A stretch of 64,000 bases of DNA from Saccostrea echinata (lineage: Eukaryota): NCBI RefSeq assembly GCF_033153115.1, contig NW_026889810.1, positions 1,984,001 through 2,048,000 on the forward strand. The letters are read 5' to 3'. Of the stretch, positions 2,152 through 40,272 are shown piece after piece. The stretch's first letter is position 1; each line of letters begins with the position of its first letter. The notes below the pieces were generated by a model. That model had not been told where the DNA came from and did no database searches. It worked only from the letters and a program-made list of their open reading frames with translations. Made by a program: the position numbers and the translations under genes.

Positions 2152-3573
2152 ATGTTGCAACCAGATTCCTGTGCGTGTGGGATGAACAATTTACAATTGT
2201 TTCAAGTCCCCCCGACTAATATTGCTTTAGAAGACTCCAAATGGGAAGAATATTACCCCATTTCTAGTACTTTAGATTCGGATACGGCTCCCATTGAATT
2301 TGAAATTAAAGGACAAGGAGATCAATATCTGGATTTATCTCAAACGTATGTTCAAATGGTGTGTAAATTTACCAAAGACGATGGTACTAATCTGACTGGA
2401 GCTAACACCACTTGCGCCCCGGTGAATAATATCTTACATTCCTTGTTTACGGAAATCGATCTCAATGTCAATGGAAAAATAGTGACTCCTGGAACTGATA
2501 CTTATCCTTACAAAGCTTATCTGGAGAAATTACTTTCTTACAAACCCAGAACTTTAATGACACAGATGAGAGCCTGTAGTCTGTGGGAAAAAGATACGGC
2601 AGGACACATGGACGAAGTGGGGGTAGCAGACCTTGGAGTGGCTCAAAATAAGACATTTGATGTAACCAAGGGTTTACTGGGTGCTGCTGATACTGTGGTC
2701 ATTGACGAACCTATCGTCCCAGAGTTACCGGCCAATTCTAGAAACGAAGGATTTAGAAAACGTCACCAGGCCATCCATGATAGTAAGAAAATAGCCTTGT
2801 TTGATCGTTTACATCTGGATCTATTTCAACAAGACCGATTTCTACCCAATGGAGTAGATGTCCGTTTGAGATTTAATCGAGCTAGACCTCAGTTATATAT
2901 GATGATCAAAGCAGGAAGTACGGGAAAAGTGAAAATATTGAACATAGTCTTGTGGGTGAGAAAAGTCAAACCCACGGCCGTCATGATGAATGGCATTAAT
3001 CAAAGTTTGAACACTCATAGAGCTAAATATCCATTGAGAAGAGTGGAAGTGAAAACCTTTACCATACTAACAGGAACTCAATCTAAGATTACGGATCATC
3101 TGTTTCAAGGCCAGATGCCTAAACGTCTCATTTTAGGCTTTGTGGAGAATGCGGCTTTTAACGGAGATAAAACTAAAAATCCGTTTCATTTTCAAAACTT
3201 AGGGATTAAGAAATTAGATGTCAGTATCAACGGAGAGACCATGAGTACTCGTTGTTTTGAGCCCAATTTCAATGAAGATTTATATCTGAGATCTTATCTG
3301 AGTTTATATCAAGCCTTGGGAAAATTAGGAGAAGATTGGGCTCCGGACATCACCCTAGAAGAGTATAAAAACGGATACACTCTGTGGGGGTGGGATTTCA
3401 CTAAAAGTCAAGAAGCGCAGTCGGACAAATTCCACATCATAGAAACCGGAAATCTGAGAGTAGAAGTCCAATTTACGAACAATACGGTGAACACCTTAAA
3501 TTGTGTGGTGTATGCAGAATTCGATAACCTATTAGAAATTAACAAACAGAGAGAAGTGAGTATTGATTACTAA
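2152..3573 (+). CDS. Major capsid protein (double jelly-roll, hexon-like), intact 473 aa
   Basis: Typical Maverick MCP sequence (LQLFQVPPT...PIEFEI...YLDLS...[11 protein letters not shown]...[14 protein letters not shown]...[15 protein letters not shown]). Lies between core and protease genes. Confidence 0.93.
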
Positions 3574-4076
3574 TGGATACGGGACAGTTGAGAGAAGTCT
3601 TATCCAGAGAATTAAAGAGTTCTTTTGGTGGAGTGTACCCTGTAGATATATTACCGGATCAATTAAGACCTCAAGAAAAAGCCATCGTGGTGAATACGGA
3701 TCCTCAAGATCAACCTGGAGAACATTGGGTATGTTTGTATTTGTCCAGTCCAGTCATCGAATATTTTGATTCTTATGGATTTCCTCCCTTACAAAAAGAA
3801 ATTCAAGATTTTATCCATCGTCATGCTCAACAATGGATTTATAATCCGTACCGATATCAAGATTGGAATACAGATGTATGTGGACAATATTGCGTGTATT
3901 ATTTACATCAAAGACACAAGTTGAGAAAGAAAGCAGACGAGTGGTTATTTCCCTTTGACCATAGTACAGCTTTACAAAGAGATCATTATGTAGCTCAATG
4001 GTTTAAAGACAGTTATCATAAAAGACCTACGGGTCATGGACAAACTTGTCAATGTTTCTATCAAAATGTCATGTAA
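3573..4076 (+). CDS. Adenain-like (C5) cysteine maturation protease, intact
   Basis: NTD...PGEHW (His), YFDSYG (Asp), YQ...VCGQYC (Gln, Cys) catalytic pattern. Start overlaps the MCP stop (TAATG). Confidence 0.93.
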   Translation: MDTGQLREVLSRELKSSFGGVYPVDILPDQLRPQEKAIVVNTDPQDQPGEHWVCLYLSSPVIEYFDSYGFPPLQKEIQDFIHRHAQQWIYNPYRYQDWNTDVCGQYCVYYLHQRHKLRKKADEWLFPFDHSTALQRDHYVAQWFKDSYHKRPTGHGQTCQCFYQNVM

Positions 4077-8678: not shown

Positions 8679-9389
8679 TTACTCTCTGGGACGTCGGCCT
8701 CGCCCTCGACCAGTAGCTACTCCATTCTCTCTCCCCTCTATGGTGACCCCACGGCCTCGGCCCACAAACTGTCTCCTGGGTGTTGGAGGAGGAGGAGGGG
8801 TAGGAACAACGGGCTCTGGGCATCCGTATCGACAGAGGGGGCAGCCCTCTCCTCGGTCGATGAGGCGGGCCGCACAGAGGAAACATGCTGGCCTCTGGCG
8901 GCATCGACCACAGACGAAGTTGGATAGCTCATCGTCGCATAAACAGAGAACGCAGTGTCCCTCCGCCACAGCAGCCTCGATCCCCCACAAGGGAATACAT
9001 CCCTGAAAGACCGCTCGGTCCTGGGGTGGTGATGGTGGTTGTACCCCGTTGAGCAGGCGGTGGAGCGCTCTGACCGGCGATGAAGGGGGGGGGGGGGACT
9101 CCGGAGTGTCTGGCAAGTCGAAGTTCCTGCCCTCCTCCTCTGGCCGCGGATGATAGATGGGCCCTGGCTCCCTTCTGCGCTCTGCCGCTGCTGCTGGCGA
9201 TGGCCTGGCATAAGGAGTGGGTCTGGATCTCCGGGTGTTGGTGGCGATGAAACTGTTCAGATCTCCCACACGAATGCGCCCCATATTAAATATGGCAAAC
9301 TCCTCCCCGGTGTCCTGGTTCCTAACAACCATCTGCAAAATGACCTCCACTCCAGGTTGTATGGCAATGTTCTCGGTAAACAGAGACAT
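8679..9389 (-). CDS. Pro/Arg-rich protein with a C-terminal all-Cys (C4C4-type) RING-like finger, putative E3 ligase
   Basis: CVLC-x10-CGRC-RQRPA-CFLC-x10-CPLCR. Homologs in B (36519-37160) and C. TATA and TCATTC initiator upstream. Confidence 0.75.
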   Translation of the reverse strand: MSLFTENIAIQPGVEVILQMVVRNQDTGEEFAIFNMGRIRVGDLNSFIATNTRRSRPTPYARPSPAAAAERRREPGPIYHPRPEEEGRNFDLPDTPESPPPPSSPVRALHRLLNGVQPPSPPQDRAVFQGCIPLWGIEAAVAEGHCVLCLCDDELSNFVCGRCRQRPACFLCAARLIDRGEGCPLCRYGCPEPVVPTPPPPPTPRRQFVGRGRGVTIEGRENGVATGRGRGRRPRE

Positions 9390-10351: not shown

Positions 10352-10885
10352 TTATTTTTTTTGGTTTAACAATTGTTCCAAATGTTGAATTCTGCGTTGA
10401 AATCTTATTCGATCGGCTACTAGAGCCATCCATTCACTTTTCCGATCTTCGGGTGGTAAATAATGAATTTCATTCAAGTCTGTATTAAAAGTCACACATT
10501 TCTTAGTCTCTCTGAAATTTCCAGATATTTCATCCCGTATTGAATGCATATTTTCTCCATCGATTCTATTTCCTGGTAGAGTAAAATCACTTTCCTTGCT
10601 TGGGGATGGCATAAAAAAGTGTAAGGCTTTCCGAGATAGTGGGTTCTGGGGCAGAGTTTCTTTCATGCGTTGACATAGAAAATGCAGTGTAGCTAGTCTC
10701 CCCAGGTTGGGAGGATGTAACAGGGCCAGGCATTGTAACCATAAGTCCTGAATGGTTTCTATGATGGTAGTGGCTCTCTGAAAGACTTGTTCTGCCTCGG
10801 GAGGAAGAGGTTGTTCGTGTTGTTCTATCCATTGCATTAACAAATCATAGCCTTCTAAAATCAAAGAGTGGTATTGCTTCGACAT
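10352..10885 (-). CDS. PPP1R15/DP71L/ICP34.5-like PP1-recruiting protein; in A a fusion of two overlapping frames caused by a 20-nt deletion
   Basis: C-terminus KKCVTF-NTDLNEIHYL-PPEDRKSEWMALVADRIRFQRRIQHLEQLL: an RVxF motif plus the W..DRxRFxRRI signature. Confidence 0.85.
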   Translation of the reverse strand: MSKQYHSLILEGYDLLMQWIEQHEQPLPPEAEQVFQRATTIIETIQDLWLQCLALLHPPNLGRLATLHFLCQRMKETLPQNPLSRKALHFFMPSPSKESDFTLPGNRIDGENMHSIRDEISGNFRETKKCVTFNTDLNEIHYLPPEDRKSEWMALVADRIRFQRRIQHLEQLLNQKK

Positions 10886-18660: not shown

Positions 18661-18885
18661 AGTAGTAGATTACTCCAGGATAGACCGGTCTATCCTGGAG
18701 TATAGGGGCCTTTATAGACGGTAAAAAAATGCAAAAAATACGAAAAATGTAAAATGCGCTGGACCGGTCTATCCAGGCGTATAGGGGCCTTTATAGACGG
18801 TAAAAAAAAAAGTCAAAATAAGAAAGTCTATACAGGATACCGTATCAAAAGTCCCAAAATGCGCTGGTCGGGTCAACTAAGTGCA
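18661..18885 (+). repeat. Left TIR of Maverick B, containing a perfect 32-bp palindrome at 18671-18702
   Basis: Reverse complement of 40049-40272 with few mismatches. Looser similarity extends to about 18998/39899. Confidence 0.95.
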
Positions 18886-36518: not shown

Positions 36519-37160
36519 TTACTCTGGCTGTAGCCCAAATCCTCGCCAAGGGAATGGGTTGTAGCGGCATAATGGACAAGGTAAACGTCGATCTATGATC
36601 CTTGCTGAACATAGATAGCAAGCTGGTCTTTGCCTGCATTGGTCGGATATATAATTATTCTGTTCTTCATCGCACAAACACAGGCTGCAGAATATGGTAG
36701 ATACAGGGACTTGTAAACCCCAGCTGGGGATACATCCCTGAAACCTAGTCTGGGTCTGCTGGCTCTGGCGATTGTAAACCTCATCCACCGTTGATGGTAT
36801 CCCAGGAGATGGAGGTGGTGATTCTGGAGAATCAGGGAGAGAAAGATTTCTTCCCTCTTCCTGGGGTCTAGGGTGGTAAATAGGCCTTGGTGCTGGTGGC
36901 GGTGGTGAGGGTGGCCTTGCTGGTGGTGAGCGTGGCCTTGCTGGTGGTGAGGGTGATCTCCTCCTCCTCCTCCTGGGGTGAAGTCTATCATAAGGTGTCG
37001 CTGATATTCTTCTGGCATGGGAATTTTCACTTATCTGCACCCGCATCATCGGACAACGCAACAATTCTTGGCCGTCTGTAATTCTACGTACAGCATAGTA
37101 ACACACTAACTCAATCCCTGGGATGAGGTATAACTCTTCATGAAAATTTTCGTCAGCCAT
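36519..37160 (-). CDS. Pro/Arg-rich RING-like protein of B (third Cys replaced by Ser)
   Basis: Shares PIYHPRP.EEGRN..LPD.PESPPP, FQGCIP.WG and C.LCLCD...CRQRPAC.LC...CPLCRY with 8679-9389. Confidence 0.72.
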   Translation of the reverse strand: MADENFHEELYLIPGIELVCYYAVRRITDGQELLRCPMMRVQISENSHARRISATPYDRLHPRRRRRRSPSPPARPRSPPARPPSPPPPAPRPIYHPRPQEEGRNLSLPDSPESPPPSPGIPSTVDEVYNRQSQQTQTRFQGCIPSWGLQVPVSTIFCSLCLCDEEQNNYISDQCRQRPACYLCSARIIDRRLPCPLCRYNPFPWRGFGLQPE

Positions 37161-37949: not shown

Positions 37950-38471
37950 TCATTCTTTTTTTTTTTTTTTTAATTTTTTTAGTTTTAACAATTGTTCCAA
38001 GTGTTGAATTCTCTTTTGTAATCTTATTCTATCCGCTACTAGAGCCATCCATTCACTTTTCCGATCTTCGGGGGGTAAATCATGAATTTCATTCAAGTCT
38101 GTATTAAAGGTCACACATTTTTTAGTAGGTCTGATATTTCCAGAGATTTCATTCCGTATTGAATACAGATTTTCTCCATCGTTTCTATTTCTTTCCAAAG
38201 TAGAATCACTTTGCTCCCTTGGGGATGACATAGAAAACTGTAGGGTTTTTGTAAATATTGCATCATGTTCATCCCGTACATTTTTTCGGGTAAAGTCTTT
38301 TTCATTCGTTGACATATGAAATGAATAATCGCTAATCTCCCCACTGTCGTACGATGGGATAAAGCCAGGCATTGTAACCACAAGTCCTGAGTGGTTTCTA
38401 TGATGTTGTCTGCTTTCTGAAACACTTGTTCCGCTTCGGGGGGTAATGGTTGTTCCTGTTGTTCTAGACAT
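37950..38471 (-). CDS. PPP1R15/DP71L-like PP1-recruiting protein (overprinted frame Y), 173 aa
   Basis: Ser/Thr-rich N-terminus, C-terminal KKCVTF...DRKSEWMALVADRIRLQKRI. ATG position conserved with 10832 in A. Confidence 0.75.
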   Translation of the reverse strand: MSRTTGTTITPRSGTSVSESRQHHRNHSGLVVTMPGFIPSYDSGEISDYSFHMSTNEKDFTRKNVRDEHDAIFTKTLQFSMSSPREQSDSTLERNRNDGENLYSIRNEISGNIRPTKKCVTFNTDLNEIHDLPPEDRKSEWMALVADRIRLQKRIQHLEQLLKLKKLKKKKKE

Positions 38472-38524
38472 TGCATTAAAGTATCATAACTTTCCAACAC
38501 TAAAGTGTGATAGTGTCTCAACAT
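38111..38524 (-). CDS. Predicted all-helical 137-aa protein (frame X) overlapping the PP1-regulator ORF
   Basis: Conserved along its whole length with element A once the 20-nt deletion in A is corrected. Confidence 0.7.
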   Translation of the reverse strand: MLRHYHTLVLESYDTLMQCLEQQEQPLPPEAEQVFQKADNIIETTQDLWLQCLALSHRTTVGRLAIIHFICQRMKKTLPEKMYGMNMMQYLQKPYSFLCHPQGSKVILLWKEIETMEKICIQYGMKSLEISDLLKNV

Positions 38525-38966
38525 GATATAAATGATTTTTAAAAAAAAGAAATGTTTTTATGACCTTATTTATACCTTTTGGTTTTCTATTTATAGAAAT
38601 AAAACCAATCAAGGTAAAAATAGGCTTAAGTTAAATTTTTTGCACACGGTACTACTACAGAGGTGTGTTTTAATTGAATTGAATTGGTGCCAAGATTAGG
38701 TACATGACCCCTCTCTGCAGGTGTTTTAAGAATCAGATCTCGTGCTTAATATATATAATTATATAATTATAGTAACAAAAAGGTAAAAATAGTTTTTCAA
38801 AGTTGAATAGGTGCCAAAATTTCACCTGTGCAGGTGTTTTAAGAATGGGATCTAGTGCTATTATAATTATAGTAACAAAGAGCTAAAAATAGTTTTTCAT
38901 AAGGTATATAAACTCAGAGTTAAGTCAGTTATAGCATCAGTTTTGACACATGTAGAGAGAATAGAG

Positions 38967-40048: not shown

Positions 40049-40272
40049 TGCACTTAATTGACCCGTCCAGCGCATTTTGGGACTTTTGATACGGTATCCT
40101 GTATAGACTTTCTTATTTTGACTTTTTTTTTACCGTCTATAACGGCCCCTATACGCCTGGATAGACCGGTCCAGCGCATTTTACATTTTTCGTATTTTTT
40201 CCATTTTTTTACCGTCTATAACGGCCCCTATACTCCAGGATAGACCCGTCTATCCTGGAGTAATCTACTACT
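40049..40272 (-). repeat. Right TIR of Maverick B
   Basis: Inverted copy of 18661-18885, followed by the TSD TGCCTC. Confidence 0.95.

Follow-up and report, generated by a model that had tools for sequence, protein, structure and literature searches.

A probable dual-coding overlap between a conserved orphan frame and the leader of a predicted GADD34-like PP1 cofactor in Maverick/Polinton elements of Saccostrea echinata

PP1 and the RVxF module are a textbook pair, and in two viral mimics of GADD34, ASFV DP71L and HSV ICP34.5, RVxF is followed by the pattern W-x5-DR-x-RF-x-x-RI. The same arrangement, RVxF and then W-x5-DR-x-RF, is carried by the tail of a predicted protein (Y) that overlaps a second frame (X) in a Maverick/Polinton element of Saccostrea echinata, within a 64,000-nt stretch of contig NW_026889810.1 (hereafter, the window). 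In contrast to the viral mimics, Y shares the coding sequence for its long N-terminus with a second conserved gene, which it reads in the -1 frame, and its carrier is an integrated Maverick. According to excerpts of PMC5346070, DP71L occurs in short (70-72 aa) and long (184 aa) forms, with the N-terminus of the long form being unrelated to other proteins; over the N-terminal part of two long viral homologues (185 and 184 aa), we found no ORF of at least 70 aa.

With respect to the Y leader, the closest likeness is to overlapping extensions of viral genes and to the spacer of the hepatitis B virus polymerase (excerpts of PMC8227390), which, as we propose for the Y leader, is a de novo frame that links to a functional domain under little constraint. 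The Y leader would instead connect a start codon with a domain of host origin, not two enzyme domains with each other, and does so in a dsDNA Maverick. Bicistronic viral mRNAs decoded by leaky scanning include those of adenovirus E1B 19K/55K, paramyxovirus P/C, and polyomavirus ALTO. X/Y similarly has two out-of-frame AUGs near the predicted 5' end of the mRNA and one disordered frame, but its starts are separated by a 3-codon mini-ORF and an internal X Met, and no sequence relationship to these systems was found. On the host side, PPP1R15 mRNAs resist eIF2 repression by means of upstream ORFs (excerpts of PMC4383229 and PMC10743859), and, as in the PPP1R15A/B and ATF4 mRNAs, the start of Y is preceded by a short upstream ORF and by a long out-of-frame ORF that overlaps Y. 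However, X starts before the mini-ORF, so the order differs from that of ATF4, and X, unlike these upstream ORFs, is a 137-aa protein under purifying selection. In the manner of Maverick/Polinton (adintovirus) accessory genes, the X/Y locus sits between RING-like and zinc-knuckle ORFs near the right terminal inverted repeat (TIR). Among the open-access papers listed by our searches, Maverick/Polinton was not found in combination with GADD34, PPP1R15, DP71L, or ICP34.5. The main-text excerpts of two adintovirus papers (PMC8502044 and PMC11071296) make no mention of GADD34 or PP1/phosphatase, though genes of this kind may be listed in their supplements. Where the excerpts of PMC11071296 speak of overprinting, they do so for a different virus group and not for an adintovirus. 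Overprinting and viral GADD34 mimicry are each known; a Maverick that combines the two, the leader being unconstrained, is new in the literature searched.

The locus in question (copy B) lies inside element B, which is a Maverick/Polinton with polB, integrase, ATPase, and TIRs around a 21.6-kb span. Repeat comparison placed its TIRs (225 nt, 97% identity between them, no strand assigned) at window positions 18661-18885 (left) and 40049-40272 (right), the latter 1.5 kb from X/Y. Between them are a protein-primed polB (21068-23788; PF03175, E 1.5e-59), an A32-type packaging ATPase (23848-24462; PF04665, E 8e-7, above cut-off), and a retroviral-like integrase (28601-29686; PF00665 plus a chromo domain), with the RING-like and zinc-knuckle ORFs flanking X/Y itself. 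Copy A belongs to a second element with the same gene order, and aligned blocks of the two elements are 76-86% identical. Two other window ORFs (2152-3573 and 3573-4076), which we take to resemble the Maverick capsid and protease, gave no relevant match in Pfam.

Translation of copy B gave the two frames as first annotated, both on the minus strand: X, a predicted all-helical orphan of 137 aa (38111-38524), and Y, a protein of 173 aa in this copy and usually 165-169 aa (37950-38471), made up of a Ser/Thr-rich leader and a GADD34/DP71L-like PP1 module. The dual-coding overlap covers 361 nt or about 120 codons (38111-38471, minus), with Y in the -1 (+2) frame of X. At its end is the RVxF-type motif KCVTF (Y residues 118-122; 38106-38120, minus), whose codons contain the X stop (38113-38111), again as had been noted; the TGA is built from the V and T codons of KKCVTF in Y. 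Further downstream is an eIF2-alpha-binding-like motif (Y residues 137-155; 38007-38063, minus) that reads RL in copy B and RF in most intact copies. On the 5' side, the Y frame opens at a stop located five codons before the Y ATG in all three subfamilies (38484-38486, minus). A second in-frame Y ATG (Met34; 38370-38372, minus) is conserved, and is equivalent to the called Y start of a fourth lineage described below. The ATGs of copy A likewise lie where they had been placed, at 10885 and 10832.

Residues 106-160 of Y match PF10488, for which the curated cut-off is 26.1 bits. The window copy (23.0), L003 (23.4), L033 (24.3), and the fourth-lineage protein P0018 (24.6) score below it, while one C copy (L030, 28.5) and the stand-alone modules L202 (28.2) and L207 (33.7) are above. 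RVxF is present in 93 of the 94 copies with both frames intact, and the eIF2-alpha-binding pattern given in excerpts of PMC5346070 is matched in its strict form by 1/94 and, with the third position free, by 89/94, the window copy failing both. A profile of the modules, host and stand-alone ones included, matches DP71L (9nb9, E 2e-16) and PPP1R15B/A chains. Y is likely a GADD34-like cofactor predicted to recruit host PP1 to eIF2-alpha. Our PF10488 search of the genome also revealed other elements with a stand-alone module of 75-76 aa (L202, L204, L205, L207, and L208; for instance, L202:1615-1839, L207:1453-1680, and L208:1498-1725), whose ORFs start 4-17 codons before the motif and which come from no fewer than two further element families of this genome. 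In L207, the module begins 14 nt 3' of an 80-aa ORF, and a relative of a window ORF is present in both L206 and L207; these elements are presumably Mavericks. The Y tail scores 85-108 against the stand-alone modules and 56-86 against six host-type PPP1R15 proteins, with a tree grouping it weakly (70/74) with the former; outside the tail, and hence in the leader, Y shows no likeness to the host PPP1R15 protein. The host's own PPP1R15 gene is likely L201:1-1662, a spliced PPP1R15-like gene that matches named oyster proteins and in which an intron splits the RVxF-type motif. Since stand-alone modules exist in other elements, the overprint amounts to a leader added to a captured module and not to a new PP1 regulator. 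The earlier description of the PP1 regulator as overprinted therefore holds for its N-terminal leader, but not for the PP1/eIF2 module, which is almost wholly downstream of X. As for other settings of the module, a polyprotein at L212:611-4831, presumably picornavirus-like by resemblance, opens with a GADD34-like PP1 module as its leader, and L214:1542-1754 is a stand-alone GADD34-like ORF of 70 aa on a short DNA-virus contig.

The DNA and protein searches of this 923-Mb genome returned 165-283 candidates, from which all distinct loci among 150 X matches, the other returned loci, and three more Y matches were taken; as only the best 40-150 candidates were scored per search, the resulting set of 151 loci is incomplete and biased to good matches. 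Well over a hundred copies of the X/Y-carrying Maverick are nonetheless present in this genome. Both frames are intact in 94/151 copies, and the two overlapping ORFs are kept in the family; the others have only Y (10), only X (7), neither (36), or are partial (4). Three subfamilies make up the 94, namely A (33), B (18), and C (43), with identities of 97.5-98.2% within and 78-81% between them. Among 110 frameshift-free copies that span the overlap, X has a stop there in nine and Y in three (leaving 107/110 without a Y stop), and their positions are all different, as is expected of decay after insertion.

Fusions of X to Y are found in nine of the 147 non-partial copies and stem from at least eight different indels, and the frameshifted copies number 16 in the fusing class and 11 in the other. 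Copy A, with its single 177-aa X-Y fusion frame (10352-10885, minus), carries one 20-nt gap at about 10645, near the 10642 reported in the first-pass annotation, and this gap is unique among the 147. Copy A is otherwise identical to intact copies of its own subfamily at 525/531 positions and is derived, the outcome of a one-off deletion. Beyond the gap, the identities to copy B that had been counted by eye, 35/45 for the hidden X frame and 30/46 for Y, proved exact. Two further features were observed. A G-A6 run near X nucleotide 239 (window about 38290-38284, minus) occurs in the B and C copies, with subfamily A being without it, and single-base gains recur there in several C copies, for which slippage or assembly error is possible. 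Moreover, a truncated A-type X/Y copy (L206:2870-3157) lies ~1.3 kb from the stand-alone PP1 module of another element, an arrangement that suggests a nested insertion.

For the openness of the Y frame, stop expectations were calculated with the X protein fixed and codon use taken from 11 single-coding Maverick genes of the window. All seven representative copies have zero Y-frame stops over the overlap, against 5.1-7.7 expected (P0 3e-5 to 1e-3), though the model overstates this somewhat, as one of the control genes, polB, shows depletion too (38 vs 71). In the third frame, 10-11 stops are present where 6.6-9.4 would be expected, the reverse calculation of X-frame stops given Y returned a P0 of 8e-4 to 7e-3, and the longest open run at the same offset in the 11 single-coding genes is 81 codons. 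We also considered at-risk sites, at which a synonymous X codon would create a Y stop, in the 87/94 intact copies with the standard overlap length. In the three subfamilies these are used at 0/16, 0/16, and 0/19 sites, compared with 222/708 in single-coding genes (P 2e-3, 2e-3, and 8e-4; 1e-4 for the 24 distinct sites), with the caveats that the gene was picked for its overlap and that the subfamilies are not independent. The depletion persists against all other X sites (p 0.002-0.004), while the strictest control, namely X codons before codons starting with A or G (used at 4/21, 4/21, and 5/25), gave a p of 0.12, 0.12, and 0.06. The stop five codons 5' of the Y ATG is itself an at-risk site that is used in all three subfamilies. 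Synonymous variation, as same-residue X codons that differ, was 0.24-0.35 vs 0.17-0.73 in other genes and shows no clear suppression in X. Taken together, we regard dual coding by X and Y as very probably real. As a separate observation, +1-frame ORFs of 141 and 157 aa lie inside the RING-like genes of both elements (36593-37018 and 8738-9211, both minus); these overlaps are within chance given codon use (P0 0.20 and 0.026).

The two frames differ in constraint: X is under purifying selection, while the 120-residue overlapping part of Y has no detectable constraint at the amino-acid level. By pairwise counts with six copies per subfamily, omega_X (dNN/dSN) is 0.20-0.31, rising to 0.37-0.48 once a transition bias of 2.5 is applied, and the 95% intervals are all below 1, which bears out the earlier view of X as the constrained frame. 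The corresponding omega_Y (dNN/dNS) is 1.2-3.4, a value biased upward in that the NN/NS ratio of private, neutral variants is already ~1.6, and we take it to mean that the Y leader is under no detectable constraint, rather than under positive selection. Within subfamilies, there are 58 NN, 20 NS, and 31 SN private variants and 20 NN, 13 NS, and 34 SN shared ones. The difference between NN (20 shared vs 58 private) and SN (34 vs 31) is significant (p 0.002), meaning that changes altering X are purged and those altering only Y are not. Between subfamilies, identity over the overlap is 82-89/119 for X and 60-76/119 for Y, as against 31-39/44 for the Y tail, in which the N sites differ at 0.07-0.16 and the S sites at 0.17-0.34; selection on the tail within subfamilies is not significant (p 0.61). 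Thus, the overlapping part of Y is Ser/Thr-rich (22-26% Ser+Thr in the leader) and faster evolving, as initially described, but what is kept in the leader is its open frame, not its sequence. Codon usage does not show which frame is older, with a CAI of 0.53-0.61 in both, and X and the Y leader are both restricted to this clade.

Among 5.8 billion proteins and 1.84 billion representatives, P0001 was the only homologue of X, with identities of 83/137 to copy B and 93/137 to an A copy (about 60-68%). A Y-type protein, P0003, was found with the profile of PP1 modules, together with its cluster mates P0018-20. A single DNA read in two frames could encode P0001 (X) together with P0018-20 (Y) at 87/87 positions, and with P0003 at 86/87, while other offsets give about 20%. 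This fit shows that a fourth lineage from public assemblies, read from its proteins, has the same predicted X/Y overlap, with Y openness there being seen from the equivalent of Met34 onward, the position from which all four Y proteins are called. Searches of IMG/VR and JGI metagenomes gave no loci for the X/Y pair outside this genome, a search with full-length Y no match at E 1e-3, and the 150 listed matches to P0001 in this genome no more distant X family. The structure predicted for X is all helical, at low confidence (mean pLDDT 49.8, pTM 0.31). It has no viral-structure match at E below 1, no Pfam match, no usable match in the ESM Atlas (best 0.77), and matches to PDB sequences only at E 0.012 or worse, to coiled-coil proteins. 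Judged only by its context, as the partner of a predicted translation-rescue factor, X is most likely a host-interaction accessory protein.

Signals for expression were compared in the 94 intact copies. A TATA box lies at -44 to -51 in 94/94 (in copy B, 38567-38574, minus, 50 nt before the X ATG), with none inside X, and no donor- or acceptor-like splice site is common to all subfamilies. At the 3' end, AATAAA or ATTAAA occurs no more than 13 nt from the Y stop in 89/94, a weak sign in A-rich sequence. Downstream of the predicted start, the AUGs come in the order of X Met1, a third-frame 3-codon mini-ORF (38476-38487, minus; stop overlapping X Met17; kept in 93/94), X Met17 in poor context, and Y Met1. 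As the Y AUG is thus the fourth and the X AUG has a purine at -3, leakage to Y would depend on the predicted short 5' leader. From Y +1 to +156, every common AUG belongs to the Y frame (Met1, Met34, and, in subfamily A, Met31), a post hoc pattern with exceptions; an X-frame Met lies between Y Met1 and Met34 in the fourth lineage and some C copies. A slippery heptamer common to the three subfamilies was not found.

For the transcription start, translation, PP1 binding, and direction of overprinting, we infer the following. Ancestrally, X and a short PP1 module would have lain end to end, with the module then gaining an upstream start by growing 120 codons into the -1 frame of X. The Y leader would serve mainly as a translational tether that places the Y start in reach of scanning ribosomes. 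One short mRNA, whose 5' leader would be 10-20 nt by the usual TATA-to-start spacing, may give X from its cap-proximal AUG, and ribosomes that miss this AUG, or that reinitiate after the 3-codon mini-ORF, could start Y at Met1 or Met34. Y would then recruit host PP1 to dephosphorylate eIF2-alpha, as DP71L does, and so oppose stress-induced translational arrest during periods of element activity. We judge this mechanism as a whole, the origin and role of the leader included, to be somewhat better than evenly probable. As an unlikely extension, the overlap could also be a stress switch, in which X acts as an inhibitory overlapping upstream ORF and Y is made mainly under eIF2-alpha phosphorylation, when ribosomes would bypass X or reinitiate late. 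If true, a Maverick would have rebuilt the feedback loop of the host GADD34 mRNA by overprinting, around a captured GADD34 domain.

Other readings accept the dual coding and differ on the leader or its origin. The leader might be functional itself: it might recruit substrate or membranes as the GADD34 PEST region does, or form a host-facing surface under diversifying selection. This is rather unlikely in our estimation: the Ser+Thr content of 22-26%, the omega_Y above 1 between subfamilies, and the ~125 residues before the motif in the long viral homologues all accord with it, but stand-alone modules exist without any leader, there is no similarity to host PPP1R15 outside the tail, and the private NN/NS of ~1.6 makes the high omega_Y partly a matter of bias. 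A lower shared/private proportion for NN (20/58) than for NS (13/20) gives a faint hint of constraint on Y, yet is not significant (p 0.18). The direction might also be reversed, Y being the older frame (a captured PPP1R15 whose N-terminus was long and disordered) and X the overprint. In favour of this, X has no homologue outside the clade among 1.84 billion representatives and was not found without Y, and codon usage is ambiguous on this point. Conversely, the Y leader is just as orphan as X and does not resemble the host protein, related elements contain modules with no leader, and the Y leader is the faster frame. Excerpts of PMC8227390 report that the two frames of viral overlaps evolve asymmetrically, with the de novo frame being the variable one in 23/23 asymmetric cases, and we hold the reversed direction to be quite unlikely.

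The remaining readings concern how, or whether, the module is made through the leader. That Y has its own mRNA, started within the 5' part of X or spliced, would account for the three AUGs that precede its own, and the module loci L202 and L208, being without a TATA within 400 nt, suggest that TATA-less starts may exist; however, with no TATA inside X and no splice-like site common to the subfamilies, this seems decidedly unlikely, and as a weak further argument, no joints occur in the few short contigs from four runs of a single study that were presumed to be RNA (shares 0.11-0.13). More doubtful still, the open leader could be a by-product of the X sequence, with the module started at a late AUG (Met81), by reinitiation after X, or not made. 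Such a leader would have no amino-acid constraint, as observed, the strict internal control falls short of significance in each subfamily, and the Y Met1 and Met34 ATGs are partly dictated by X residues. This reading is very improbable to us given that none of 24 distinct at-risk sites along the overlap, 15 of them before Met81, is used, that the fourth lineage is open from Met34, that there is no in-frame Met near the motif, and that the chance overlap in the RING-like gene is far weaker (P0 0.2 and 0.03). Finally, ribosomal frameshifting or polymerase slippage might yield an X-Y fusion as the main PP1 product, and copy A would be a fixed mimic of it. The -1 frame of Y, the 9/147 genomic fusions, and the recurrent single-base gains at the G-A6 run of B and C point that way, but subfamily A has no A6 run, no slippery heptamer is shared by the three subfamilies, and the fusions trace back to eight or more different indels, the frameshifted copies being 16 of the fusing class and 11 of the other. 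Fusions are also few, so the family does not mostly consist of single fused ORFs of the copy A type. Moreover, the C-terminal half of X is constrained, and the Y ATG is kept although both X codons that spell it change, leaving this the remotest of the readings.

The X/Y locus provides a well-replicated gene overlap (94 intact copies, four lineages) in Mavericks, a group in which accessory genes and their expression have received little study. The favoured reading, a leader acquired by a captured module, points to a way for overlaps to arise: a domain taken from the host obtains its start codon from the spare frame of a neighbour, and that frame stays open while its sequence is left free. The presence of a GADD34-like module in several element families suggests in turn that Mavericks meet an eIF2-alpha kinase defence, which fits a viral lifestyle, and X, as a conserved orphan protein, is worth structural work. 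Elsewhere in element B, we noticed an array of ~180-nt repeats between the ATPase region and the integrase (window about 26080-27830), inverted relatives of which lie at window positions 50050-53050.
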